From positions 429-64,428 of IMG/VR virus record IMGVR_UViG_3300028138_000003: DNA of 64,000 bases. One strand, 5' to 3'. Source of the DNA: a virus. The notes below the pieces were generated by a model. The model did no database searches, had not been told where the DNA came from, and worked only from the letters and a program-made list of their open reading frames with translations. Positions 2,176 through 64,000 of the stretch are shown here, one piece after another. Made by a program: the position numbers and the translations under genes. The first letter of the stretch is position 1, and the number at the start of each line of letters is the position of its first letter.

Positions 2176-2391
2176 TCACTTACCGGCGGGGCCGGGGACG
2201 CATCCCTCCGCCCCGTGGACGACCCCGTCATTCGTGGCCCAGTAGTTCGGCCACACGATCCAACCGTGGGGGCAAACGCTGTTCCGGCCGACCCGCTCCA
2301 TATAGCCGGGCTCGGGAGTGACGCAGTTGTTCGGTCGTATGCGCTGCGGGCCGAGATAAGAGGTCGGCTCAATCCTGATCTTCGCTTTCAT
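2176..2391 (-). CDS. hypothetical small Cys-containing protein, 71 aa
   Basis: GGAG RBS lies 8 nt before the ATG at 2391. An ATGA overlap joins it to the stop of the glycosyltransferase gene. Confidence 0.4.
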   Translation of the reverse strand: MKAKIRIEPTSYLGPQRIRPNNCVTPEPGYMERVGRNSVCPHGWIVWPNYWATNDGVVHGAEGCVPGPAGK

Positions 2392-3389
2392 CTGGTCAGC
2401 TCCTTGATTGCTTTGGCAGCCTCGATACACAGGGTCAGGGCGTCCTGCGCACGATAATTGAAGGCCTCCACGCCTCCCGGGAAGACCGAGAGGTTGTAGC
2501 CGCGCAGGCAGCAGTACATGGCGAACATGGACGTGGTCAGCAGCATCGTGTGGAGCCCGGGCGCCTCCACGGCGTCAGTGGCCTCTTCGATCATGGTGTT
2601 GAGCCACTCGATCTGGTTGAGGAAGTCCCGCTCCTTGCACTGGAGCGCTGCGGGGCTGAAGTGCTTGCGGCCGTATTCCGTCATGTTGGAACCAGGCACA
2701 GGCGCCCGCATCACGAGCAGTGGGCGCGGGTCGAACAGGATCGAGCCCTTGACCGCAGCGTGCGCCACGACCATGTGATCCCAGCCGGCGCACATGTGGC
2801 GCACTGGCACCTGCCGGCGGATCTCTTCGTTCCACAGGCCGAATAGCGGCGTGCAGTCGATGCCGCTGATGATCCACTGGGGCACGAAGGGCAGCGGCAT
2901 GTTGCCTGCGGATTGCAGGTAGTTGGCGTACTGCCCGACGAACTGGTCGTCCTCGTTAACCTGCGCCGTGTGCGTGTAGACGAGTGCCGGCTTGTTGCCG
3001 GCCTTGCGCTCGTTGTCCAAGCGGCTCACGAGGGTCGCAAGATGCTCGGAGTTGGGCCAGTAGTCGTGCCCGCCCAGCGTGATGCTGTAATCGACAGGCA
3101 GCGAGGAGATGTATTCCCAGCCAAACTTCATGGCGGGAATGCCAGCGAGGCCCTGCGGCATCGCAACGAACACCACCTTGCCGGGATTCGACTCCACGTA
3201 GTTGAGCGCGATCTGATCCGCTCCGTCGAGGCTGTGGTTATCGAAGATGTAGAGCGTGAAGTCTTTGTAGCTCTGGTTGAGCACGGACTCGATCGCCTTC
3301 GCAATGTGCTTGGCGTTGCCGTAGTTGTTGATCCAGACAGCTACCTCAGACACGAGTCTTCTCCCTTCCGCGACCGAAGTTACCGCCAA
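2388..3389 (-). CDS. family 2 glycosyltransferase (GT-A fold)
   Basis: The N-terminal GT2 signature is present (VWINNYGNAKHIAKAIESVLNQSYKDFTLYIFDNHSLDG, DxD-type). There is no C-terminal TM segment. An alternative GTG start at 3353 has a GGGAGA RBS. Confidence 0.75.
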   Translation of the reverse strand: MAVTSVAEGRRLVSEVAVWINNYGNAKHIAKAIESVLNQSYKDFTLYIFDNHSLDGADQIALNYVESNPGKVVFVAMPQGLAGIPAMKFGWEYISSLPVDYSITLGGHDYWPNSEHLATLVSRLDNERKAGNKPALVYTHTAQVNEDDQFVGQYANYLQSAGNMPLPFVPQWIISGIDCTPLFGLWNEEIRRQVPVRHMCAGWDHMVVAHAAVKGSILFDPRPLLVMRAPVPGSNMTEYGRKHFSPAALQCKERDFLNQIEWLNTMIEEATDAVEAPGLHTMLLTTSMFAMYCCLRGYNLSVFPGGVEAFNYRAQDALTLCIEAAKAIKELTR

Positions 3390-4495: not shown

Positions 4496-5785
4496 TCACG
4501 GTCCAACCTGCTGCGTGGCGAAGCCCTGAATGCTGTTACCGCTCGCCGTATCGCCCGTGTCGGGCTCGGGCAGCTGCGCGGCAGCGTACGCGGAGAAGAG
4601 GATCCCCACGCTCGCCGTATCGCCCGCGCCGCCCGCCAGGCTATTGCCCGTGACGCTGACGTAGGGGCATCCCTCAAGGAGTATGCCGATTGCGCGCGTG
4701 GCGCCGTTCACGGTGTCCACGTAGGCTAGGTCGTTGTTGCTGATCGCGCCGTCGTGCACGTTATAGAGCGCGTAGATCCCGGCGTTCGCGCTCGCGAGGA
4801 TGCGATTGCCGTTGACGGTGAAGAACGCGGTGCCCAAGTCCAAGCCGATGGCCGGGGAGTTGGTGCTCGACATGGTGTTGCCGGCGAGAGTGAGATCGAC
4901 ACTGGTCGCAAACTCGCTCAGCCCCGCGCCGGTCGTGGTGTTGTTGGCGAACGTCGCGCCCTTTGAGTACTCGCTGTAAAGCGGATCGGCAGTGCCGTGC
5001 GTCGTGACACTGATGCGCTGCACGGTCGCATTCAGCGTGCTGAGAATCGCGACGCCCACTGCGCTGCCGGCGGCAGAGGGATCGACGACTATGCTCAAGT
5101 CCTGCACCGCAAGATCCTGCGTCACGAAGATCTTCTGAAAGCCCACGCCGCTCGTGATCGTGCCGCCGGTGCTTGGCGTATACGGGAATGGCGTGCTGAA
5201 GGCTTGCCGGAACGGCACGGTGACGTTGACTGTCGTGCCGCTGACGTTTGCAACCTGCACCCAGTCGACCGTGGTCGCGTACGAGGTGTGGAAGGTGCCG
5301 TCCTTAATGCCGGGGTCCCAGTTCGTTATCAGCAGCCAATCGCCGGCGCCAATTCCCGCCAGGTCGCTCGAGTTGGCGGCCTGGAACGAGGTGTCGCCCA
5401 CGTTGATGGCGCCAGCCACCTCAAGAGGGATAGTGGCCGAGAGCGCGCAGCGCGTCGTGATGACGCGATCATTCTGGCAGTGCTTGACAGTGCCCGGGGC
5501 GGGCGGCTCGTAGAACAGTACCGTGCTCGCACCGTGGCCCTGCAGCGTCGTGCCGCTATGGGACATCATCAGCGTGCGCGAGATGTGGTACGTGCGCGCG
5601 TCCAGCTGCACGACTCCGCCGGCATCCAGCAGCGCTTGCACGGCTGCGGTGTCGTCGACCACCGGAGGTGGCGGCGGCGCCTTGATATCGGGCGGCGGCA
5701 CGGTAACGTGCGGCGCCGGTGGCGTGACTCCCCCACCGCAAGCGGCGAGGGCGAGTGTTACTGCAATCGGGATTAACTTGTTCAT
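4496..5785 (-). CDS. exported lipoprotein with right-handed beta-helix (pectate-lyase-like) domain
   Basis: The signal is MNKLIPIAVTLALAACGG (lipobox). A Pro-rich linker follows. Repetitive beta-helix segments are present (NVHDGAISNNDLAYVDTVNGA..., GNSLAGGAGDT). ATGA coupling joins it to the upstream small gene. Confidence 0.6.
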   Translation of the reverse strand: MNKLIPIAVTLALAACGGGVTPPAPHVTVPPPDIKAPPPPPVVDDTAAVQALLDAGGVVQLDARTYHISRTLMMSHSGTTLQGHGASTVLFYEPPAPGTVKHCQNDRVITTRCALSATIPLEVAGAINVGDTSFQAANSSDLAGIGAGDWLLITNWDPGIKDGTFHTSYATTVDWVQVANVSGTTVNVTVPFRQAFSTPFPYTPSTGGTITSGVGFQKIFVTQDLAVQDLSIVVDPSAAGSAVGVAILSTLNATVQRISVTTHGTADPLYSEYSKGATFANNTTTGAGLSEFATSVDLTLAGNTMSSTNSPAIGLDLGTAFFTVNGNRILASANAGIYALYNVHDGAISNNDLAYVDTVNGATRAIGILLEGCPYVSVTGNSLAGGAGDTASVGILFSAYAAAQLPEPDTGDTASGNSIQGFATQQVGP

Positions 5786-5910
5786 TTCCACAACCTCATG
5801 ATGACGTTCGCGGCGACATCGACTGCCTTGTTGAGAGCGTAGATGAGAATGCCCGCCAATACGACAGCGATCCCCAGCGCGATGCTGACGATGATCAGTG
5901 CGGTTTTCAT
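5785..5910 (-). CDS. small single-TM protein, 41 aa (holin/antiholin-like)
   Basis: The product is MKTALIIVSIALGIAVVLAGILIYALNKAV.... GGAGAA RBS is present. ATGA overlaps occur at both ends. Confidence 0.4.
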
Positions 5911-6235: not shown

Positions 6236-6406
6236 CGTGGCATCCCTCGCAGGCAGATGGCGTGCTCCATGCCTACGAGGCCTTGGCCCATCCGCTCGTT
6301 GACCCAGCGGGCCTGCGCCGTGCACTCCGCTTGCGTAGCCTGCGGGATTGCCTGCGATGTGTTCCAGTCCATGCCGAAAATGATCAGATACCAGATCGTG
6401 TTCATG
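6232..6406 (-). CDS. hypothetical 57-aa protein
   Basis: The product is [34 protein letters not shown].... Its start overlaps the DNA methyltransferase stop (ATGA), and its stop overlaps the next ATG. Confidence 0.35.
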
Positions 6407-7370
6407 CTGCGATCTCCATTACGCTTTCGATGAAGGCTTGCGCGACCTGAGGAACGATTGCATTGCCGTAGCCCCGCAGGAGTCCCACTCGACCGGGTAC
6501 CCCATGAGCCAGCGGGAATGTGCCGGGTTCAATTGGCCGCCACTTCCCATCTCGGCAGCCAACCAAGCAGTGCGTCCAAGTAGCGCGTTGATCGGCGCGG
6601 AGCCGTCGCTGGCTCCATCCTTGTGGTCGCGCGTCGTCGGGGTTGGCCAACTCGCCAGCTGGGCTTGCAACGATAGACTCGTAAGACTCACTCCGCAGGC
6701 GCCGTTCAAGTTCCGCTTGCGATTCAGGAACTGCTCCGGCGTGCCGCCCGCTTCCTGTGCGGCTGGGGTGGCCCACGTGGCCAGCTTCGCTGCCCCGCCC
6801 AGCTTCAGACACGGACGGTTGTGATCCCCGTTGCCGTAGCTGTAGTCGCTCCCCTTGCTGTCGTTCACCACCGGCGAGGGCCACCCAATAGAGCCGCTGG
6901 CGGATGTGCGGGGCGCCGACGCTCGCAGCGCACAGATCCGCAGCCCCAACGGCGTAACCCTGTGCTTCCATGTCAGTTGATACAGAGTCGAGCCAGTTGA
7001 GGCCAAGCGGGCTCGCAACTTGCTCTCCAAAGACGACTGGAGGCTTGCACTCGCGAATGAGCGCCTCCCATACGTGCCAAAGGTCTCGGGCATCATTCTC
7101 CCGCCGGCGGCTGTTGGCAACGCTGAAGGGCTGGCACGGACAAGATCCGGTCCAGACTGGTCTGTCGTCGGGCCACCCCGCCATCCGGAGAGCAAGAGGC
7201 CACCCTCCGATGCCAGCGAAGAAATGCGCTTGAGTGTATCCGCTGAGCTCTCCTGGTTTGACCTCTTCGATCGATCGCTCATCGACGTCTCCTGCCGGCA
7301 GATGGCCGGCCAATATCAGTTCGCGCAGCCACGCTGCGGCCTTGGGGTCGAATTCGTTGTAGTAGATCAT
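6402..7370 (-). CDS. DNA (cytosine-5)-methyltransferase, orphan (no cognate restriction gene seen)
   Basis: C5-methyltransferase motifs are present: [47 protein letters not shown] low-complexity target-recognition region lies between them. Confidence 0.8.
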
Positions 7371-44400: not shown

Positions 44401-45625
44401 CTCGGGCGGCGAGGGCGCGCCGATGACTGGCGCGTATGATAAGTTCCAGCGCGTGGCCGGCTACCTGTTCAATGCGATGGAGCACAAGAACCGCATGACG
44501 ACCTTCCTCGCCACGTACCGGCTGGGGGTCAAGAAGGGCATGAGCACCGACGATGCGTTCAAGCTCGCCCGCAACGTGACGTGGGACAGCCACTTCGACT
44601 ACACCAACGCCAACCGCCCGGGCGTGCTGCAGAACGACTTCGCCAAGGTGGCGGGGCTCTTCCGCCAGTACGCTTGGGGCGTAACGTATCGGCTGGGGCG
44701 CGACCTGCGCGACTCCTTTAAGGCCGACTCCACGAAGGAAGAGCGCTTGTCCGCGGCGCACGCGTTCAGCAACACGATGGCGCGCATGATGCTGTACGCG
44801 GGCGTCACGGGAGTTGGTATCGGCTTCCCGGTCTACGGACTCATCTCCGGGCTGACCAACGCGATCATGAACCAGGTCGACCCCGACCGGCCGTTCGACA
44901 TGACTCAGGCGCTGCACGAGCACCTGCAGGATCACCTCGGCAAGACGGCAGCCGACTCGATCATGACCGGGCCTGCCAGCCAGATCACCGGCGCAGCACT
45001 CAGCCGCGGCGCGAGCTACAACGACATGTGGTACAAGCCACCCGATCGGGAGATGAAGGGCCGCGATCAGGTCATGGACGCCATGGGGCAGTTCCTGGGC
45101 CCGGTGGCTGCCATCCCGATCAACGCCGTCACCGGCGCGGACATGATGGCGCAGGGGCACTTCGAGCGCGGGCTCGAGCACTTCCTGCCGCCTGAGTCGG
45201 CGGCGCTCGCCAAGTCACTACGTTATAGCCAAGAAGGCGCTAAAAATCTAAAAGGCGATACAGTGGTCGACAAGAAAGAGCTGTCGAAGTGGGACATCGC
45301 GGTGCAGGGCGCGGGCTTCACGCCGCAGAAGATCGCCGCGCAGAACGAGATCAATACCCAGAAGCAGAACTACATCGACCGCGTGCAGACGCGCAAGCAG
45401 GCGCTCAGCACCAACCTGCGAGCCGCCATCGTGGCGAGCGACGACAAGGAAGAGAAGTCAGTGCTGAAGCAGGTCGACCACTTCAACACCGCGCACCCGG
45501 GCGATGCGATCGGCTGGCGCGAGGTGCAACAGATTCGCTCGGAGGCCCGCGCTGCGGCGCTCTCCGATCGCGGCGTCAGAGAGCCAAAGGGGCTTCGTGA
45601 GGAAGTCCAGAGGAAGTTCAAATGA
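38408..45625 (+). CDS. giant polyvalent virion / ejection protein (2405 aa) with an ADP-ribosyltransferase-like segment and a HExxH Zn-peptidase domain
   Basis: The ADP-ribosyltransferase-like segment lies at about nt 41570-42010 (VVYHGT...GxxF...HVAFEPE; H-Y-E-type signature with YHGT as in diphtheria toxin). The metallopeptidase motif TLAHEYTHMG lies at 42391-42420. The N-terminus is an Ala/Glu-rich coiled coil. The C-terminal roughly 1000 aa carry hydrophobic segments. Confidence 0.75.
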   Translation: MAAAEDAPAEQQPARPAYWDAPMGEGAPAPQHDDAASMGRQSVAGPDAEQEAPRPAYWDAPLAAAPEPEAKPTEAPKPAESTFGTDVLTGIGARGAQMYHGAKEAMANHQFSSAREEFYRTMVLGDAVRDAGKAGIALIDDPVVQEISKHVGMRPDQFVRGWYNYVNLSEEEKQKRLGELQQQMVEATGNIAEASHGRALAGQVSREAMPREHQFAYKALTMAPEILGGLGISMIPGGQAPAAAMFMSDFGLTSYAQARDSGASDDQAKVYGVLSGLAATVPQVPVMTALQKTPAAQALMQTAIGKVLAQNAAGRVAGAVASQATNESLALAVQNTLQIAIDKGVLDQNTTLGEALRTIGEGALMGATFGSFSGAAHSGVNRLVNGPAATQGPGASDAMTNRILEAQHTAMDAAQTDAEQAALAAGGDALDGKVAAIQANAHVSAEHDAATVHQTRVEAARKSAEDEIANAQAAEDELKKDQDFGAAERQAGKVGNAPSADEAFAQREQEGALAAKRAEAQKDRDFVPAKNQAADQDVAQAEVAEEKGGASPAKPTLAEALPTEQVNALQALRDRLAAQRSANEPAKETTAAERLKAQNPEDDFQQLGPEVPKATKGEPKFILDPLDELAPGKAKAPEKAPEPTEDEEEPTGGPPPVTAQTLAERRQQALDAAMAAKVRGPVAKEAPIAAHRRDLTALERDLPAPAEGTTRLWRGGKKGEGPGEQTRFTDDPAGIAMPFEKGYGGRLFHVDVPTDQLEGYRNGPNDPGAFNLPKELAAKAQDSRNLAKDKVAPKGALAERRAAARPPLQQGVDPAERLLEEQVKKDADAAAANPKGKRPPLVQGRDLAGPLIEAKARRDAEAAAAPTTTEEAPAPATAEAPIAAPEAAEKESARIEAERTRPTDALSAAPAKPNRLAAIRAAQEKRNQRIRTPAEQSIIDDLRAGRAKKGEEPPRFADVRQANVWKRMNDELAEHRAAMDKARDAGDVRGYNAAADKYDALHERIMRVAKQQAEAPPERPAPGSKPTGRFAAIKDRAANLKRWFGKSVVKNADGSPKVVYHGTPVWERNGKSLGDVTSFDRNAAGKALNRTPGMDAVGSWFTDSPEGAGDFSGSEGVVYPTHLKIENPWRPTSFDEFLARGRKAAGLPPKGNPMGRFDPQYLRNELKRAGHDGIIFPSMKIDGREQQYHVAFEPEQVKSAVGNSGDFDPANPDIRSKTAEENIAEDMDRATNPRMTKDEATEHLKPVLAKIHPAVAARTHVHGDKNDALALPDSQLSARTKEQLRNYEGTPAGLYDPDTNTVHVFGDGHLASPTDDGRPGGQSEIIKTLAHEYTHMGLRNILGADYRKTMLDLANKVKNRQLAKDLIEARGFDVGSEEHMTALGDEYAAHLAEDANADPGLWRTVVDGVRRALRKVGLVRNWTDDDIRDLVRRNNPMLGETDAAARAGLAYKGDVPRFADNKATDHQIDRDLDPTDPKAIQYKLARTVEEQMDANRGSIDSRTAWDNFVAQAQKTGRNLAEWGRGTNDNKRLGWIGLRNMMDFMRKDLMPDLHGFIDDHDAMDGMRGRLVNEGADIARKWSKWQAKQDDRGWGLSELMHSSTLLGHDASKPYESQYTKEELAESPDKRQDDRYQRALHAGLKKTYDSDALGSEGRELYNTVRDHYATARQRIFDALTRRIEETGADENTKKQLMAELRQRFESGRVKGVYFPLQRFGNRWARAMDAEGNHVAFSRFENKDDQDQWLKHMRDQGLEVDKGQQIDSKSEMERIDPDFVKKVMSLAHDADGSGELEKEIWQTYLKAMPEMSMRKHFIMRQGRLGFSQDALRAFAYNSFHGAHQQARLEYGNRLDTRLANVKKQAEALATVSAQNPGDKLADKNSEWGAALAKELEQRLDWIKNPRSSPWASNLTKFGFLWYLAAAPATALRISLQNTMLAQPQIARHFGQIGATKELSKAVLQWAGARGKLSDKLRGDERAAFERAADMGIFSNTNTTMLASGGEGAPMTGAYDKFQRVAGYLFNAMEHKNRMTTFLATYRLGVKKGMSTDDAFKLARNVTWDSHFDYTNANRPGVLQNDFAKVAGLFRQYAWGVTYRLGRDLRDSFKADSTKEERLSAAHAFSNTMARMMLYAGVTGVGIGFPVYGLISGLTNAIMNQVDPDRPFDMTQALHEHLQDHLGKTAADSIMTGPASQITGAALSRGASYNDMWYKPPDREMKGRDQVMDAMGQFLGPVAAIPINAVTGADMMAQGHFERGLEHFLPPESAALAKSLRYSQEGAKNLKGDTVVDKKELSKWDIAVQGAGFTPQKIAAQNEINTQKQNYIDRVQTRKQALSTNLRAAIVASDDKEEKSVLKQVDHFNTAHPGDAIGWREVQQIRSEARAAALSDRGVREPKGLREEVQRKFK

Positions 45626-46221
45626 TCGTGTATCTAATGAGACATGGGCGAACCGCGATGGACGTGCTCAAGCGTTCAGACGGCTGGCTGGACCTACCGC
45701 TCTCGGACAAGGGCCGCATGGGCCTCATCCCCGCGCAGCAGCACCTCAAGCTCGAGCCGCTGAGTGACATCTTCGCTCCGCCGTTGAAGCGCACGACCGA
45801 GACCGCGCACATCATTCAGTCGGGCGTGATCAAGGCGCCCAGCGTCGTGCCGTCGCCGGCAGCGATGACGTGGAACCTCGGCGTGATCTGCGGGCTCCCT
45901 AAGACCGAAGCCAGGCCCAAGGTCAAGGAGCTGCTCGGCCATCCGGATACCAAGCCGATCGGCGGCGAGTCGTACAACGAGTTCAAGAAGCGCGTCATGA
46001 CATGGTTCAGGGCGCGAGTGAAGGAAGCCAAGGCCAGTGGCAAGCCGATCCTGATCGTCTGCTCTGGATCCAACCTCCGACTGCTCGGCACGGTGCTGTT
46101 CAAGAACCGGGACGAGTTCAATCTGGATGAGGGCGGGCTCGTCAAGCTGACGCAGATCGATGGCAAGTGGCACGCGCAGACACTGATTGGCGACGGCGCT
46201 GATCCGGAGGAGATCTCGTGA
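45622..46221 (+). CDS. histidine phosphatase superfamily (phosphoglycerate mutase / SixA-like) protein
   Basis: N-terminal catalytic motif LMRHGRT and second Arg motif PLKRTTETA are present. The C-terminal conserved HG position reads IVCSGSN (His to Ser). ATGA-coupled to the giant protein. Confidence 0.55.
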   Translation: MIVYLMRHGRTAMDVLKRSDGWLDLPLSDKGRMGLIPAQQHLKLEPLSDIFAPPLKRTTETAHIIQSGVIKAPSVVPSPAAMTWNLGVICGLPKTEARPKVKELLGHPDTKPIGGESYNEFKKRVMTWFRARVKEAKASGKPILIVCSGSNLRLLGTVLFKNRDEFNLDEGGLVKLTQIDGKWHAQTLIGDGADPEEIS

Positions 46222-46694
46222 TGACGTCGAACGAGCTACGGGCGCTGATTCAGAAGACGCTCAAGCCGGTGCAACTTTGGTCGCCTGACGCCGAGGAGCT
46301 CCTCATGGCGACCGCGGCGCAGGAGAGCCACCTAGGGCAATACCGCCGGCAAACCGGTGGCGGGCCGGCACTGGGGATCTTCCAGATGGAGCCGGCGACG
46401 TTCAACGACATCTGGCTGAACTACCTCGCCTATCACAAGAACCTTGAGGCGGACCTGTGCGCGCTGGCGACCACGCAGCCGCCGCGCCCGGTCGAGATGG
46501 TCACTAACGACGCGTTCGCCATCCTCATGGCACGCGTGCATTACCTTCGGGCACCGGGGAGCTTGCCGGCTGCCAGTGACCTCGAGGGGCTCTGGGCCTA
46601 CTACAAGGCGCACTGGAACACCCCGCTGGGCGCCGCCACGCACGATCAGTTCACCAACAACTACAGAATGTTGGTCAACGGAGACGCAAGATGA
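46218..46694 (+). CDS. lytic transglycosylase (SLT-domain lysozyme), likely endolysin
   Basis: SLT catalytic region AAQESHLGQYRRQTGGGPALGIFQMEPATF (E-S...GLMQ-type) is present. A holin-like gene follows. Confidence 0.7.
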   Translation: MMTSNELRALIQKTLKPVQLWSPDAEELLMATAAQESHLGQYRRQTGGGPALGIFQMEPATFNDIWLNYLAYHKNLEADLCALATTQPPRPVEMVTNDAFAILMARVHYLRAPGSLPAASDLEGLWAYYKAHWNTPLGAATHDQFTNNYRMLVNGDAR

Positions 46695-46876
46695 AGAACG
46701 ATTGCCGAGACTGGTTCGTGATGCTGCTCGTGGCCGGGGCGTGGATCTTCGCCAGCGTCTACCTGTGGAAGCACGCCAGCACTGCCGATTTCAGTATCTG
46801 GGCCGGTGTCTGCGGAACCCTGACCGCGGTCTACCACTGGCTAAACATCAGGGACCAAAAGGAAAAGGATCAGTGA
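46691..46876 (+). CDS. holin-like two-TM protein, 61 aa
   Basis: Two TM helices and a charged C-terminus (NIRDQKEKDQ). ATGA-coupled to the lysozyme gene. Confidence 0.5.
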   Translation: MKNDCRDWFVMLLVAGAWIFASVYLWKHASTADFSIWAGVCGTLTAVYHWLNIRDQKEKDQ

Positions 46877-46877
46877 C

Positions 46878-47120
46878 ATGAGCGACGAAATAATGATGGA
46901 CATCCAACGCACTCTCGGCCGCATCGAGCAGAAGATCGACAGCCACGTGGAAGCGTTCGACAAGCATGTCACCATGGACATGGAGGCCTACAAGGCCATC
47001 GGTGCGCTCAGGACTGATACGGCGAAGCAGAAGGGTTACATGACGGCCATGGGGGCCATCGGTGGCGTTGTGGTTACTGCGCTAGGATACCTAGTCGATA
47101 GGATGTTCGGCCAGCACTAA
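46878..47120 (+). CDS. small protein with C-terminal TM anchor, 80 aa
   Basis: The TM anchor is GAIGGVVVTALGYLV. It could be an antiholin, or a partner of the SPFH protein. Confidence 0.4.
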   Translation: MSDEIMMDIQRTLGRIEQKIDSHVEAFDKHVTMDMEAYKAIGALRTDTAKQKGYMTAMGAIGGVVVTALGYLVDRMFGQH

Positions 47121-47143
47121 CCCCACGGATACTGAGGTGACTC

Positions 47144-47701
47144 GTGTTTGATAAAATCTTCGAGATCATCCAGGCGTGCTTCGAGGCGCTGATTCCGTGC
47201 GTCATCATCTACCCTTTTGAAAGGGGACTCCTGATCCGGCTCGGGAAGTTCAAGCGCGAGCTGGCCCCCGGCTTCCACTGGTGCTTCCCGCTCCACATCG
47301 ACGCTGTTCTGCATGAGCACATTACCGTGCGCACGGAACACCTCTCGGGACTCGCCACAACCACAGCGGACGGTAAGAGCGTAGGTTTTGACGCCATAGT
47401 CACGTACCGAATATCTAACCTCGAGAAGGCACTCCTCGAGGTGACTGATCTCAAGGACGCGGTCGCAGACACGTGCACCGGGCAGATCGGCACCACACTT
47501 GCCGAATCGGACTGGGGCGCCATTTGCCGCGGCGAGGTTCTCGACAATCTTGCTGCAGTATGCCGCAAGCGGGGATGGAAATACGGAGTAGAAATAATCT
47601 CTGTTCAGCTGGCGGGCGTAGCGCTTGTACGCAACTTCCGGATCAGTACTGGTCAGTCCCAACCACACGTCACGCATATCGTTCCTAGTCCCGGGATGTA
47701 A
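47144..47701 (+). CDS. SPFH / band-7 domain protein (HflK-like)
   Basis: ERGLLIRLGKFKRELAPGFHWCFPLHIDAV parallels the HflK stretch ERGVVLRFGKFSHLVEPGLNWKPTFIDEV. VTYRISNLEKALLEV parallels VQYRVTNPEKYLYSV. An N-terminal hydrophobic segment is present. Confidence 0.7.
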   Translation: MFDKIFEIIQACFEALIPCVIIYPFERGLLIRLGKFKRELAPGFHWCFPLHIDAVLHEHITVRTEHLSGLATTTADGKSVGFDAIVTYRISNLEKALLEVTDLKDAVADTCTGQIGTTLAESDWGAICRGEVLDNLAAVCRKRGWKYGVEIISVQLAGVALVRNFRISTGQSQPHVTHIVPSPGM

Positions 47702-47779
47702 TTTTCCAATTGTAGATCCGGGCCAGAGGATAGCTTTCAAGAGATCTGGGGTCATTGCGATTGCTCTTGCGTCGGGGGC

Positions 47780-49252
47780 CTACCACTCGATCGACGTCAG
47801 TTTCGGCTCTGAAGGGAAGGGGGAGCCCGGAGTCAATATACCTGTCGTCGTCGGGCTTGCGCATGCTAGTTCCCCTTTCAGTTTCTCGGCCACACGTATC
47901 TGCGCAGCCACCTGCTGCTCTCCTTTGAAGTCTAGTAGCGCTACGGCTTCTTCGTCAATCGTGCCCTCAGAGACGATATGATGAATGCAAACCGTTCTTC
48001 CAGTACGCCGATGTCCTCCGGCGATGCGACCGTTAAGCTGGTCATAGAACTCTCGGTTGTTTGTGAATCCGAACCATACCAGGTTTTCGGCCCCCGAGAG
48101 GTATAGGTCATTGAGACCGTGGCCTGCGCTTGCAGGATGCATGATTCCATAGTCGATTTCTCCTTTGCGCCATGCGTCGAGGGACGCGTTGGACCTAAGG
48201 ACAGCGAGCTTGCCAAGACGCCGGGGGAAAGATGCGAACACTCGTTCCACGTCGTGGACATATCCGTACCCTATGATGACCGGCTTCGGGAGGCTTTCGA
48301 GGAGTTCCCAGAGCGCCTCGAGCTTCTGGTCGTGGATCTTGTGCCACTTGTGCTCGGAGTCGTAGATCGCCCCGTTTGCCATCTGAAGTAGCTTTCCCCA
48401 TAGAACTCCAGCATTAACTGCACTGATCGGTTGATCTCCCACTCCTTCAAGAACGCTGGTCCGTACCATTTTGCGGTAAAGGGCCATTTCGGACTTCGTG
48501 AGCTGGACCTTGACGAAGTTGGTCGGCGCAGGAGGTTGGGCATCTCGCATGACGTGGAAGACGTCGGAGATGAGGGCGTCGATCTTGACTGGCGATCCGG
48601 GGAGGATCTCTCTGCTCGGGATGCCATCTCTTACCTCACACTTGAAGAAATTCTCGTGATAAGCCGTTTCAGTGCGGCCCAGGCGCTGGCCCTGATCAAT
48701 GAGATAGAGCTGCGCCCAGAGATCGGTATAGCCGTTGGGCATGAGCGATCCCGTGAGAAGCCAGCAACGAGAGAAGAGGCGACGCAACCGCCGCAGTGAC
48801 TTGAATCGCTTGGAGGACTGATGTTTGAAGCTCTGACATTCGTCGACGATAACGAGGTCCCACGGCCAGCGCCGGTACTGCTTCTTGTCTTTGATGAATT
48901 GTTCTCCCAACCAGACGACATTGTCTCGCGTGATTGTGTAAACGTCCGCATCCACATCCATCGCTCGTAGGCGCTGTTCTCGGCTTCCAACAATGCGCGA
49001 GACACGTAATCCTTGGAGGTGCTCCCACTCTTGGGCTTCTGTGTGCCAGACGCGCTCGGCCACCAGTCGGGGTCCAATAACGAGTACCCGTCGAATGTCG
49101 AATCTGTTAAGGAGGTGCTTGACTGCGGTGAGGGCGGAGACCGTTTTGCCTGTCCCCACGTCCGCCCATAGTCCTCCGGTCGGATGATCTTGCAGGAACC
49201 GGATTGCGTCATGCTGGTCCCCAGTAAGCTGCGAGAATCTTTTTAAAGCCAC
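47780..49252 (-). CDS. SNF2-family helicase
   Basis: Walker A DVGTGKT, DECQ box, and C-terminal helicase motifs are present. Confidence 0.75.
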   Translation of the reverse strand: MALKRFSQLTGDQHDAIRFLQDHPTGGLWADVGTGKTVSALTAVKHLLNRFDIRRVLVIGPRLVAERVWHTEAQEWEHLQGLRVSRIVGSREQRLRAMDVDADVYTITRDNVVWLGEQFIKDKKQYRRWPWDLVIVDECQSFKHQSSKRFKSLRRLRRLFSRCWLLTGSLMPNGYTDLWAQLYLIDQGQRLGRTETAYHENFFKCEVRDGIPSREILPGSPVKIDALISDVFHVMRDAQPPAPTNFVKVQLTKSEMALYRKMVRTSVLEGVGDQPISAVNAGVLWGKLLQMANGAIYDSEHKWHKIHDQKLEALWELLESLPKPVIIGYGYVHDVERVFASFPRRLGKLAVLRSNASLDAWRKGEIDYGIMHPASAGHGLNDLYLSGAENLVWFGFTNNREFYDQLNGRIAGGHRRTGRTVCIHHIVSEGTIDEEAVALLDFKGEQQVAAQIRVAEKLKGELACASPTTTGILTPGSPFPSEPKLTSIEW

Positions 49253-54777: not shown

Positions 54778-55750
54778 TTACAGCCAGTGGGGGTTTTCTA
54801 GTGTCCATGTGACAGTCTTGAATAAGGCCTGCTGGAACGTCGCTGGCGGTCGCCAGCCCATGCGCGCAAGTTTGCTACCGTCGAGCGCGTAACGCAAGTC
54901 GTGCCCGGGCCGGTTGCCGTCCCCGGTCAGCTCGTACCGCAAGCCCTCGCTCATGATGAAAGCGATGCTCTTGGCCAGCTCGGCGTTGTCCACCTCGCGC
55001 TCGCCGACGATATTGTACTTGTCGCCGGGCACGCCATTCTGCAGCACGAACAGCACCGCGTCGGCCACAGCCTTGGCGTGAATGTAGAACCGCGAGCCGG
55101 CCTTCGTGCGCTCCGGGTTGGAGTGGATCTGCACCGTTTCGCCGTCGCGGATCTTGCGGATGGTGCTCGGGATGAACTTCTCGGGGTGCTGCCGCTCGCC
55201 CATGACATTCATGGTGTGCGTGATCAGCGCGGGCACGCCGTAGGTATTGTGGAACGCGATCGCGAGTTCCTCGCCTCCAGCCTTGCTAGCACTGTAGGGG
55301 TTAGTTGACTTGTATCGATCCCATTCTTTGTAAGCAACGCCCGGAGGAGCGCTGCCGAAGACCTCATCAGTAGAGAAGTAGAGAAGCCGCCCGCAGCCAA
55401 CTTGTCGAGCGTAGTTAAGTAGGTTGCAAGTGCCAACGACGTTCTCTTCGACAAACGAGAGCGGGTCCGCGATGCTGCGGTCGACGTGCGTCGCCGCCGC
55501 GAGGTGGATGATGTGGTCAAAGGGGCCTCCTAGCTGGCTGACGAGCTGCCCGTTGAGCGGTGCGCGCAGGTCGTGATAGAAGAAGCGGACGCGCGGGTTC
55601 TTTACCGCGCCAACCTCGGCCAGGCGATTCAGATTGCCGGAGATGTCGAGGCGGTCGATCAGCGTCAGGTCCCAGTCGGTGTAGTTGAGCAGCTCCTCGA
55701 CGAGGTGGTGCCCGATGAAGCCAGCGCCGCCGGTGATAAGGGCTTTCATG
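54778..55750 (-). CDS. NAD-dependent NDP-sugar 4,6-dehydratase (RmlB-like)
   Basis: The internal ATG at 55750 gives a 324-aa product. Motifs MKALITGGAGFIGHH, STDEVFG and YSASK are present (Rossmann GxxGxxG, catalytic YxxxK). Confidence 0.75.
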
Positions 55751-56147
55751 CTGTGTTCCTCTCCCGCTTCTCGATGAGCAGCTGCAGCTCCGCGCGCAGG
55801 CGCCAGATGGCCTTGGCCAAGTGGTAGGTTCCGTCGGTGTCCATGATCTGGCCCGTGCCGTGATCGAAGATATGCCGGAACGCTTTGTTCAGGTGGTCCG
55901 TGCTCTTCTCGCGGGCCCAGTGCATCTTCGTGCCGGGGTTGTGCTGCTTGTTGCCTTCCCATGCGACGCGCACCTCCTCGCGGAACGACAGCGGGAAGTA
56001 CCCGAACATGTAGTCCCACATGGGGAGCCGCTCTCGCTCCGTGGGCGGCTTGGCTGTCGCCGGCTGCAGCACTGGCGGCTCGGTGCGGATCACGTTGGGC
56101 ACCTCGTCGTAAGCGCAGTCCAAGCACTTGTGCTCGCTCACTGCTTG
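55746..56147 (-). CDS. hypothetical protein, 133 aa
   Basis: GTG start overlaps the upstream stop (GTGA). The product begins VSEHKCLDCAYDE. Confidence 0.35.
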   Translation of the reverse strand, partial: QAVSEHKCLDCAYDEVPNVIRTEPPVLQPATAKPPTERERLPMWDYMFGYFPLSFREEVRVAWEGNKQHNPGTKMHWAREKSTDHLNKAFRHIFDHGTGQIMDTDGTYHLAKAIWRLRAELQLLIEKRERNTA

Positions 56148-56416
56148 CGCTCCATGGTGTCCTCGCCATCGGAGTAGAAGATCTTTGGCGTCTTGGTCTC
56201 GCGCGTCAGAGCGGTCACCATGGCCTCCGCGAACACTCGAGCGATCGTCTCGGGGGTGTAGATCTTGCCGGTGCGCAGCAGCCCGCCGATGTACGCCCCC
56301 TCGGCCACGATGCAGGCGAACAGCAGTCGCGAGTCGTGGACGAGCGCTAGTGGGCCTAAGGCGGCGCCAACGGCATCGCTGCAAGCCAGCAGCGCGTCTT
56401 GCTCAATATTGCTCAC
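56138..56416 (-). CDS. hypothetical protein, 92 aa
   Basis: ORF-track call. ATGA overlap with the phosphoesterase gene stop. Confidence 0.35.
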   Translation of the reverse strand: MSNIEQDALLACSDAVGAALGPLALVHDSRLLFACIVAEGAYIGGLLRTGKIYTPETIARVFAEAMVTALTRETKTPKIFYSDGEDTMERKQ

Positions 56417-62193: not shown

Positions 62194-62407
62194 AGTGCAT
62201 CCTCGGTAGCAATTGTCCAGTTCCAAGGCACCGCGGGCAGCCGCTGCCCTTGCGCACCGTGGTCTTCTCGGCGATGCCCTCCTCGTCGCGCGTGCGCCGT
62301 GTGAGCGGCGCGCCCTCTGAGTCGAGCATGGAGTCGCATGTGGCCGCAGTGTATCCGATGCCTTGGCACTCGGGACACTCGGTGTGGGAGGCTTTCGTGG
62401 TTCTCAT
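62192..62407 (-). CDS. Cys-rich protein, 71 aa
   Basis: CPECQG and CPRCLG motifs (zinc-ribbon-like). ATGA overlap with the GT9 gene stop. Confidence 0.4.
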   Translation of the reverse strand: MRTTKASHTECPECQGIGYTAATCDSMLDSEGAPLTRRTRDEEGIAEKTTVRKGSGCPRCLGTGQLLPRMH

Positions 62408-63504
62408 GCCGGCGGACTCCATACAGGGGCCTTCCCCGTGTTCATACATTCTTGCAGGGCCGACCACACCCACTCGGGCTTGGTCTCAGTGGTGCACTGC
62501 GCCACCTGCGTCTGCTTGTTCTGCAGGCAGCCCTCGAAACCAGGCAGCAGCTTGTGGCATGCTGGGACTTCGTTAGCGCCGCGCCCGGGGCAGTGCGTGT
62601 TCGGCGCCCAGATGCTCGTGGTGTTGACCCAGTCACGGGTCAGGTTCTCGATCGTGCTGTGGGTCAGCAGGCAGATCTTCGGCATGGGGTAGAACGCAGA
62701 GGCCGACATCACGCCGGTCTCGGGCCCTACGACCACGTCGGCCGACTCCATCATGAGCATCACCTGCCGCATGGTGTACTTGCCCGCAGTCAGCCACATG
62801 CGTGGCCGGCCATCGAACCCCTGTTCTAACGGCGTGCAGGTCGCGTCGCCCACAGTCAGGACGCCCCACGACGGGTAGTGCCGCAGCACGTGCTCCCACA
62901 CCTTGTTGGCGTGCGGGTAGACCTTGTGCCCTCGGCTGCTGCCGGCGAGGTTCCACAGGATGTACTTCTCGATGCCGGCTTTCTTCATCTTGGCCAGCTC
63001 GCGCTGCCGCCACTCCTGCTCCTCGTCTGTCGAGTAGAACTTGAAGCTCGGCACGTATGCGCATTCCGCCAAGCGGTGCTGGTGCTCGAGGTAGTTGACA
63101 TTCATGAGCGCGTGGCGCGCCTTAGCCGGCCACACGAAGCGGATGTTGCCCGGCATGGCCAGCAGGTTGGCCTCCACCGACTCGGTGAGGTTCACCCACT
63201 TGTCGAATTTCTTGCCGCCCGGGGCGCCGTAGTTCTCAAACCAAGGCCAGAAGAGGCCGAGGTGCGCCATGGGGACTTGGTTGATCGTCTGCACGACGAG
63301 CCGGTCGATCGACGGATCGTGGATCACGATCTCGTGGCTCGGGTGCTGCGACACGAGGGTCACGTGGTACCCGTCTTTCTTTAGCTGCGTGATGATGCTC
63401 ATCGCCTGCGCGACGTCGCCGAAGGCACCGTAGCGCACGACGCACGCTGTGGGCAGCCCCTGCGGGTTTTTCTTTTCTTTCCAGCTGAATCGTTGCGTAC
63501 TCAT
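62404..63504 (-). CDS. GT-B glycosyltransferase, family 9-like (heptosyltransferase-type)
   Basis: The C-terminal region MESADVVVGPETGVMSASAFYPMPKICLLTHST resembles the GT9 donor-binding motif (D-SG..HLA.A.G.P...LFG). TGATG-coupled to the C-methyltransferase gene. Confidence 0.6.
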   Translation of the reverse strand: MSTQRFSWKEKKNPQGLPTACVVRYGAFGDVAQAMSIITQLKKDGYHVTLVSQHPSHEIVIHDPSIDRLVVQTINQVPMAHLGLFWPWFENYGAPGGKKFDKWVNLTESVEANLLAMPGNIRFVWPAKARHALMNVNYLEHQHRLAECAYVPSFKFYSTDEEQEWRQRELAKMKKAGIEKYILWNLAGSSRGHKVYPHANKVWEHVLRHYPSWGVLTVGDATCTPLEQGFDGRPRMWLTAGKYTMRQVMLMMESADVVVGPETGVMSASAFYPMPKICLLTHSTIENLTRDWVNTTSIWAPNTHCPGRGANEVPACHKLLPGFEGCLQNKQTQVAQCTTETKPEWVWSALQECMNTGKAPVWSPPA

Positions 63505-64000
63505 CAGAACACCTTCAGCTCAGGGATTGCGGTTACGAACTGTCCGCCCCAGCCGCGGATGCAGTGGAGCTTGTCGACGATGTTGTCCTTCCAGTTCCAC
63601 GGCAGGATCACCACATATGCCGGCTGGCGCACGAGTAACTCCGCTTCCGAGATGATCGGAATGTTGCTGCCCGGGAGGAACTTGCCGATCTTGGCCGGCG
63701 TGCTATCGCCCACCGCGAGGATCTCCTCCGCGCTGACGTGCAGCCAGTTGAGGAACGTGTTGCCCTTGGCGGCGGCGCCGTAGGCGTACACGGGCGCGTG
63801 CTGCGAGAGGAACGCTTCGAAGTCCCCGCGGATGCTCCATGCGCGCTCGCGGAACTTCCAGTATGTCTCAAGCTTGTCGAGCCCGGCTTCGCGCTCGCGC
63901 GCGAGGAAGTCCGCGATGCGAATGCTCGGGATCATCGCCCCGGTGTGGGCCACCATGATCTGCAGCGAGCCGCCATGGATCGGCAGCTCCTCCACGCCGT
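63504..64000 (-). CDS. NDP-hexose C-methyltransferase, C-terminal portion (partial; its 5' part lies off the window end)
   Basis: HGGSLQI follows the end of the methyltransferase domain. The Methyltransf_14-type C-terminal domain is present (YAYGAAAKGNTFLNW...IPIISEAELLVRQPAYVVILPWNWKDNI). The frame is open to the window edge. Confidence 0.65.
   Translation of the reverse strand, partial: GVEELPIHGGSLQIMVAHTGAMIPSIRIADFLAREREAGLDKLETYWKFRERAWSIRGDFEAFLSQHAPVYAYGAAAKGNTFLNWLHVSAEEILAVGDSTPAKIGKFLPGSNIPIISEAELLVRQPAYVVILPWNWKDNIVDKLHCIRGWGGQFVTAIPELKVF

Follow-up and report, generated by a model that had tools for sequence, protein, structure and literature searches.

Known SPFH systems

SPFH proteins organise membranes universally, and the closed cages that they form are the usual explanation of their action. 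HflK and HflC enclose FtsH and contact it from the periplasmic side, the SPFH domain of stomatin acts on channels and FliL surrounds flagellar stators. FtsH is also inhibited by amphipathic-helix peptides such as lambda CIII. Here we describe an SPFH (Band_7) gene carried by a 64,000-nucleotide stretch of viral DNA (positions 429 to 64,428 of the IMG/VR record IMGVR_UViG_3300028138_000003), the whole of which is called the window below. The gene specifies a protein of only 185 residues (amino acids, aa), made of an SPFH domain preceded by an amphipathic helix, and belongs to a large family that we call mini-SPFH. Loci carrying related genes are designated by handles of the form L001.

SPFH genes have repeatedly been annotated in phages. 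They are found in Pakpunavirus and in Bruynoghevirus-related Pseudomonas phages (PMC8540360), as open reading frames (ORFs) in the T4-like phages 44RR, Aeh1 and RB43 (PMC1524935), and in Kayvirus, whose MbpS, encoded in the lysis region, has been proposed to aid secretion of a lytic enzyme (PMC7150955). Annotations also concern Burkholderia phage CSP3, Xanthomonas phage X1, Vi01-like phages, DLP5, jumbo phages and a Pseudomonas satellite prophage. Other viral carriers are Rhizobium phage Pasto, Vibrio phage pVa5 and giant viruses with Band-7 proteins, while MW202733 includes a short ORF described as prohibitin-like. The literature on phage SPFH proteins consists of annotations and speculation, and no experimentally characterised case was found in it. 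The preliminary description of the window had called SPFH proteins rare in phage genomes. This is overstated for the class, which is uncommon yet repeatedly annotated, but it does apply to the mini-SPFH family, which is absent from sequenced isolates.

The other viral SPFH proteins differ from the family described here. The approximately 30 SPFH-like viral models of BFVD are mostly 260-500 aa long, with a C-terminal region that is apparently kept, and similarity between such proteins and the mini-SPFH family is undetectable by tblastn. They resemble it in that they are also of unassigned function and in that Kayvirus MbpS likewise lies in a lysis region. The sole close structural twin in BFVD is A0A6J7WFI0, a protein of 173 aa from an uncultured phage which is labelled 'HflK' (28% identity, TM-score 0.86). 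No description of the mini-SPFH family was found in the literature searched; what is new here is its architecture and the scale at which it occurs in phage-like metagenomic contexts.

Assignment to the SPFH superfamily

The preliminary description had identified the ORF from its motifs as a phage-encoded, HflK-like SPFH protein at the end of a lysis cluster. Its coordinates proved exact and all the motifs are present (FERGLLIRLGKF, PGFHW, HIDAV and VTYRISNLEKALLEV). The profile search that it proposed recovers the SPFH domain: Pfam Band_7 (PF01145) matches residues 21-160 with an E-value of 5.3e-14 and 53.1 bits, against a gathering cut-off of 23.6. An AlphaFold2 model based on a 50-sequence alignment (mean predicted local distance difference test score, pLDDT, 84) shows the SPFH1+SPFH2 alpha/beta fold. 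When this model is compared with the PDB using Foldseek, the top match is human stomatin (E 6e-14, TM-score 0.74), followed by HflC/HflK, prohibitin, QmcA, erlin and flotillin, the main matches ranging from E 6e-14 to 1e-10. The family profile gives a similar picture against solved structures: stomatin is matched over its full length at 1.4e-15 and QmcA at 4.6e-12, HflK at 1e-10 in a partial alignment limited to positions 18-128, and HflC at 1e-6. The protein is a stomatin-type SPFH protein and not an HflK orthologue, and both its identity and its architecture are near certain.

The attribution to HflK specifically was thus not borne out. HflK is the sole NCBIfam model matched, with scores 4- to 20-fold under the equivalog cut-offs (40.9 bits vs 159.4 for TIGR01933 and 30.8 vs 660 for NF008181), and stomatin and QmcA are nearer. 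The features shared with HflK and HflC are the SPFH fold and generic motifs (E.G...RfGK, PG, D..V, T.D and YrI). In contrast, the phage protein has no convincing transmembrane (TM) anchor and no periplasmic export signal, coiled coil, cap or paired second subunit, and its 185 aa compare with 419 aa for HflK, of which it is under half the length, and 334 aa for HflC. No hflC partner or second Band_7 protein was found among the window ORFs scanned. Database labels such as 'HflK/HflC, regulator of protease activity', together with the lysogeny role inferred from them, reflect an annotation habit that the present assignment corrects.

The protein also differs from its nearer cellular relatives stomatin, PH1511 and QmcA, with which it shares approximately 15-20% identity. 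These carry a hydrophobic hairpin or TM segment where the phage protein has a charged amphipathic helix. The phage protein lacks their coiled-coil wall and cap, and no 16- to 26-mer cage is expected. Moreover, stomatin-NfeD operon pairs such as QmcA-YbbJ and PH1511-PH1510 include an NfeD partner, whereas no NfeD-family protein was found among the neighbouring and other window proteins scanned or in the precomputed Pfam annotation of related loci. FliL is more distant: it has a genuine N-terminal TM segment and a periplasmic domain, matches only the SPFH2-like half and shows no sequence similarity with the phage protein.

Domain architecture and predicted topology

The N-terminal helix follows the consensus M-[FL]-[DE]-[KR]-L-phi-[DE]-phi-phi-x-x-phi-phi-[ED]-x-phi. 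In the window protein its acidic residues are described as fixed at positions 3, 7 and 14, and column statistics over 227 family members place a charge at positions 3, 4 and 7 in 88-94% of the family and at position 14 in 59%. The median hydrophobic moment of the same 227 helices is 0.59. In alignments the helix corresponds to the latter half of the membrane hairpin of stomatin, just before SPFH1. A 19-residue Kyte-Doolittle window reaches 1.88 in the window protein, which is above the crude TM threshold, a threshold exceeded by 30% of the family. Insertion-energy sums point the other way: they amount to +5.5 kcal/mol for the window protein, with a family median of +8.1 and none of 256 members at or below 1, while the phage's own 61-aa TM protein, used as a positive control, gives -0.43 (these sums use values after the Hessa biological scale and are indicative only). 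Given these sums and the conserved charges, a classical N-terminal TM anchor is unsupported.

The helix is therefore predicted to be amphipathic and to serve as an in-plane membrane or protein-contact helix rather than as a TM anchor. Because it is too charged to span the membrane, the protein is probably cytoplasmic and docked in-plane, and docking on the cytoplasmic leaflet appears to be the most economical reading of the sequence. No signal-anchor-like segment compatible with an HflK-like type II topology, in which the SPFH domain would be periplasmic, was identified in the 185 residues.

Ten residues are invariant among members that are 39-94% identical (R32, G34, P49, D53, D76, D109, C140, R141, G148 and R166). 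Three of them fall within a family-specific basic and aromatic motif, CRKRGWKWGVEI (also cited as CRKRGWKWG), which in the window protein (CRKRGWKYG) may serve to bind lipid headgroups or a partner.

The chain extends 24 residues beyond its last SPFH strand; the gene that follows is convergent and 78 nucleotides (nt) away. The poorly conserved tail occupies the site where canonical SPFH proteins carry the coiled coil and the cap (70-200 residues). In stomatin, QmcA, HflK/C, prohibitin, erlin and flotillin this additional part, from which the wall and lid of the cage are made, runs to 70-250 residues. The C-terminal coiled coil (CC1/CC2) and cap are missing from the window protein and across the family, and without a coiled coil the protein probably cannot form an HflK/C-like cage alone. 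If mini-SPFH proteins are functional, as selection indicates, they would show what an SPFH domain does without a cage and would offer a compact tool for probing how SPFH domains recognise their partners.

Coding strand, start codon and selection

The GTG start is backed by the N-terminus M-[FL]-[DE]-[KR]-L, which is kept family-wide. The ratio of non-synonymous to synonymous substitution rates (dN/dS) is 0.066 against a 94%-identical homologue (L040) and 0.086 against an 83%-identical one (L039). Changes with respect to both cluster at third codon positions: differences per codon position 1/2/3 are 0.04/0.03/0.26 for L040 and 0.14/0.08/0.48 for L039. The low dN/dS and this codon-position pattern establish that the plus strand is coding and under strong purifying selection.

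A 212-aa ORF lies on the opposite strand in the same codon register. It was considered as a true or second gene and rejected: it has no Pfam or PHROG match, its frame is uninterrupted in only 7 of the 37 homologous loci, and the third-position variation suits the plus frame. Because the two frames share a register, the antisense frame is open where the sense frame lacks TTA, CTA and TCA codons.

Only 23 nt separate the stop codon of the upstream holin-like gene from the start of the SPFH gene, and because of this short distance the two are likely co-transcribed. No promoter-like site was detected upstream of the SPFH gene on the plus strand, and terminator or promoter signals around it do not exceed shuffled expectation.

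The G+C content at third codon positions (GC3) is 0.68 for the SPFH gene and 0.64 for the adjoining SNF2 helicase gene (47144-49252), while it reaches 0.77-0.85 in the upstream late genes and 0.81 in the DNA polymerase A gene. SPFH genes of the nearest clades (L001, L008, L009 and L011) have values of 0.60-0.63 and some others 0.8-0.93.

Family size and distribution

A search of 5.8 billion proteins retrieved 111 relatives, all from metagenome assemblies with contigs of up to 64 kb. Except for a few partial sequences they are 170-228 aa long, and every full-length one has PF01145. A profile search of 1.84 billion cluster representatives gave 293 clusters at E<=1e-30 and 2533 at E<=1e-10; the best 150 clusters are nearly all 166-190 aa long and match from end to end. 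Because this length is uniform across clusters, it corresponds to the native architecture of the family and not to a truncation in the window. Phage-type genes, such as those for a polyvalent protein, a lysozyme, DNA polymerase A and an SNF2 helicase, occur on the contigs examined. Mini-SPFH is therefore a large family restricted so far to metagenomes, where every context examined was a phage-like contig, and represents a widespread uncharacterised accessory gene of uncultured phages with DNA polymerase A, SNF2 helicase and polyvalent protein.

Among 185,579 species-representative genomes only two matches were obtained (L034 and L035), both on contigs of metagenome-assembled genomes binned as Actinomycetota (Solirubrobacterales and Nocardiaceae). 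These bins give no reliable clue to the host. A Gram-negative host is instead suggested by the Rz-like spanin candidates of related loci.

The family is absent from sequenced phage isolates: tblastn searches with three members gave only weak matches to unrelated SPFH genes and otherwise bacterial hflK in mislabelled Salmonella records of the phage collection. There is no proper PHROG for the family.

Gene context and a possible role in lysis

The window was compared with 40 further loci, 41 in all. In 10 of them, including the window, the late operon and its lysis genes are followed by the SPFH gene and then by a convergent SNF2 helicase gene. A small, C-terminally anchored membrane protein is encoded immediately upstream of the SPFH gene in each of these ten. 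A neighbour-joining tree of the SPFH proteins places this arrangement in three separate lineages, including the deepest one (L006/L035, 38-40% identity), with the replication-operon arrangement described below interspersed among them. The position at the end of a lysis cluster claimed in the preliminary description therefore stands for the window, where the cassette is plausible and its functions are putative, but not for the family as a whole.

Mini-SPFH proteins could act as small adaptors or clamps at the cytoplasmic surface of the membrane, where they would bind the cytoplasmic part of a membrane protein, the SPFH domain of stomatin on channels and FliL around flagellar stators providing precedents. 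In the window phage the most likely target would be its own lysis machinery, that is the 80-aa tail-anchored protein and/or the 61-aa candidate holin, so that the timing of the lethal membrane lesion would be adjusted. We tentatively put forward this role, that of a membrane adaptor acting on lysis proteins from the cytoplasmic face. Among specific hypotheses, only action on the phage's own lysis proteins has comparative support, because the adjacency recurs in three lineages, a tail-anchored candidate partner lies upstream, and Kayvirus MbpS, an unrelated SPFH protein, provides an independent precedent for placement in a lysis region. A bolder reading, which is rather unlikely, is that mini-SPFH proteins form a phage-invented class of cage-less clamps on the cytoplasmic face, which hold a holin- or XhlA-like lesion protein inactive or else cap or poison a host SPFH-protease cage. 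If true, this would be the first demonstrated function of a virus-encoded SPFH protein and a new way to set the lysis clock.

Several observations weigh against a role in lysis. At least 15 of the 41 loci have the SPFH gene as the last cistron of a replication and nucleotide-metabolism operon with no lysis gene nearby. In these, DNA polymerase A, SNF2 helicase, an exonuclease or metallophosphoesterase, DUF7220, DUF4406, a dGTP-pyrophosphohydrolase-like gene and SPFH lie on one strand, and SPFH is often translationally coupled to the dGTP-pyrophosphohydrolase-like gene by overlapping start codons. Convergent with this operon are JAB-like genes, possibly associated with the tail, and large genes (approximately 1000-1500 aa) of unassigned function. 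The contexts of the remaining 16 loci are varied. SPFH may be directly preceded by the polyvalent protein and followed by an exonuclease (L003/4/25), or lie within the replication module with a PD-(D/E)XK nuclease on one side and a 542-aa protein on the other (L007); it follows an RNA ligase in L037 and the terminase in L036. Furthermore, the case for membrane association itself is built on hydropathy arithmetic and the homology with the stomatin hairpin. The gene most consistently occupies the junction between late and replication modules, as it does in most related phages; lysis genes adjoin it repeatedly but not in all cases, and the conserved feature may be the module junction rather than lysis.

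Genes of the dGTP_diPhyd_N, dATP-dGTP_PPHyd and DUF4406 families, which are associated with nucleotide-pool editing for non-canonical DNA bases, adjoin SPFH in related phages (L007 10796-13568, L005 6980-7941 and the replication-operon loci generally). They have no match among the window ORFs scanned.

Alternative roles

The variety of contexts also suits a general accessory function in host takeover, independent of lysis, in which the protein would dock on the inner membrane from mid-infection and bind a conserved host factor or lipid. It might for example stabilise the energised membrane, organise replication or assembly at the membrane, or blunt membrane-acting abortive-infection effectors, and the lysis adjacency in the window would then result from mere insertion at a module junction. 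Most loci indeed hold SPFH with DNA-metabolism genes or in varied non-lysis surroundings, both main arrangements place it at the late/replication junction, and its time of expression would differ between the two, contrary to a strictly late role. The GC3 of the window gene, which is under that of the upstream late genes and resembles that of the SNF2 gene, goes in the same direction, and the CRKRGWKWG motif could be a lipid- or partner-binding patch. However, no specific target can be named, the PADLOC defence-system models have no match at E<=0.1, so that defence or anti-defence models offer no counterpart, and lysis adjacency recurs in three lineages. We consider this accessory role possible and give it the same weight as the tuning of lysis. 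Mini-SPFH proteins could affect lysis timing or host membrane physiology. The idea of an entry-blocking membrane protein that shields the infected cell from superinfection, also raised in the preliminary description, draws on the same possible membrane association, on the retention of the gene in lytic-type phage genomes and on the replication-operon arrangement, where it would be made before the late genes. Yet ten loci, the window among them, have it at the very end of the late genes, too late to be of use, and known exclusion proteins act in the membrane or periplasm, unlike the predicted cytoplasmic, non-TM topology; we consider exclusion very unlikely.

A link to FtsH was proposed in the preliminary description. 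The phage protein could be a mimic or decoy of HflK/HflC that gates or inhibits host FtsH, either as a cap-less 'poison' subunit in the host HflK/C ring or by binding FtsH directly, with altered turnover of membrane proteins or of a phage regulator as the outcome. The weak and partial similarity to HflK models and the fold itself permit this, and the enclosure of FtsH by HflK/C and its inhibition by amphipathic peptides of the lambda CIII type provide general precedents. Against it, the HflK equivalog scores fall far below cut-off with stomatin and QmcA closer, and the protein has approximately 20% identity to any cellular SPFH protein together with invariant motifs of its own, while co-assembly in a ring would favour closer resemblance. 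A TM signal-anchor is indicated in none of 256 members, which predicts a cytoplasmic SPFH domain whereas HflK/C touch FtsH in the periplasm; this predicted topology argues against an HflK-like mode of action. In addition, no repressor or integrase was seen among the window ORFs scanned, and thus no CII-type lysogeny switch to protect. Interference with FtsH is accordingly unlikely. The short length, below that of all cellular SPFH proteins, could also suggest a decaying, functionless fragment of a captured host gene. This explanation is effectively refuted and its probability negligible: dN/dS is 0.07-0.09, the short length is uniform over hundreds of clusters, and ten invariant residues and the N-terminal helix are conserved.

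The window genome and its putative lysis cassette

The viral origin of the window, as given in the preliminary description, is supported by genes for the small and large terminase, portal and major head protein at 18-28 kb, by the giant polyvalent protein and by a set of genes on the opposite strand encoding an SNF2 helicase, DNA polymerase A, an Enc34-type single-stranded DNA-binding protein, DUF2800 and a D5-like primase-helicase. No close relative of the window DNA was found among 50,697 phage records. Its DNA polymerase A is approximately 35% identical to those of Bordetella phage BPP-1, Caulobacter phages and BcepC6B-like phages, and Vibrio phages have capsid proteins 50% identical to its own. 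The SPFH gene is the last cistron of the late operon (Table 1).

Table 1. Coordinates of the SPFH gene, its parts and its neighbours in the window
Feature	Position	Strand	Description
Polyvalent protein, 2405 aa	38408-45625	+	ART-PolyVal (ADP-ribosyltransferase; residues 1052-1207) and LPD39 (1530-1712)
Histidine phosphatase	45622-46221	+	His_Phos_1, E 8e-25; between polyvalent protein and putative endolysin
Putative endolysin, 158 aa	46218-46694	+	phrog_3108, E 4e-43 (function unnamed); SLT, E 0.014, under cut-off
Small membrane protein, 61 aa, candidate holin	46691-46876	+	Strong TM segment 8-26; weaker second hydrophobic stretch
Tail-anchored protein, 80 aa, holin-/XhlA-like	46878-47120	+	phrog_689 'holin', E 3.5e-5; XhlA, E 0.044, under Pfam cut-off
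Antisense ORF, 212 aa	47117-47755	-	In-register shadow of the SPFH frame, not a gene
Shine-Dalgarno-like GAGGTG	47134-47139	+	Read from the sequence; GAGG at 47134-47137, 6 nt before GTG
SPFH (Band_7) gene	47144-47701	+	185 aa; GTG start, TAA stop
N-terminal amphipathic helix FDKIFEIIQACFEA	47147-47188	+	Codons 2-15; AlphaFold2 helix 2-15
SPFH1+SPFH2 core	47198-47626	+	Codons 19-161: strands 19-90, helices 93-147, last strand 149-161
Basic/aromatic motif CRKRGWKYG	47561-47587	+	Codons 140-148; C140, R141 and G148 invariant (50-sequence alignment)
Disordered tail	47657-47698	+	Codons 172-185; pLDDT <50; poorly conserved in the alignment
SNF2-family helicase	47780-49252	-	Convergent; end of replication operon; Pfam SNF2-rel_dom, E 5.9e-18

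The stretch upstream of the SPFH gene is read as a lysis cassette, a reading supported by the PF00959 phage lysozyme that relatives hold in the slot of the 158-aa protein. The endolysin and the other lysis functions of the cassette are putative. The 158-aa protein itself carries a lytic-transglycosylase-like motif (AAQES...GIFQM), and a sequence search of the PDB gave no match. The TM segment of the 61-aa protein was called from hydropathy and insertion-energy sums, with no family match above threshold; this protein is conserved in L008, L009 and L011. The 80-aa protein consists of a soluble N-terminal helical region and a C-terminal TM segment (hydrophobic segment 55-73), and in L001/2, L008 and L011 a homologue of it immediately precedes the SPFH gene.

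In relatives, an Rz-like i-spanin candidate (120-168 aa, with an N-terminal TM segment and a long helical region) is found between the small holin and the tail-anchored protein (regions L002 4693-5991, L008 7010-7991 and L006 7131-7955). In the window (46218-47120) the 61-aa gene is directly followed by the 80-aa gene, and no ORF with a lipobox, as expected of an o-spanin-like lipoprotein, was found at 46-48 kb. The spanin function of this phage may be encoded elsewhere, absent or performed differently.

The 2405-aa polyvalent protein is probably an ejected virion protein, and many related loci encode a homologue of 1100-2300 aa upstream of their SPFH gene. The histidine phosphatase, common to L009 and L039, is an unusual gene for its slot.

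Elsewhere in the window, sugar-nucleotide-type enzymes are encoded on the minus strand (54778-56169, 62404-63504, 63504-63995 and 2388-3389). They include an NAD-dependent epimerase/dehydratase (GDP-mannose-4,6-dehydratase-like), a GT9-like glycosyltransferase just under cut-off, a sugar C-methyltransferase C-terminal domain and a GT2 glycosyltransferase. This set suggests hypermodification of DNA with sugar or remodelling of host surface glycans. The left arm, away from the structural operon, carries two further minus-strand genes (6402-7370 and 4496-5791) encoding a C-5 cytosine DNA methylase (E 9e-15) and a right-handed beta-helix protein (NosD/Beta_helix) that is possibly a depolymerase or tailspike.

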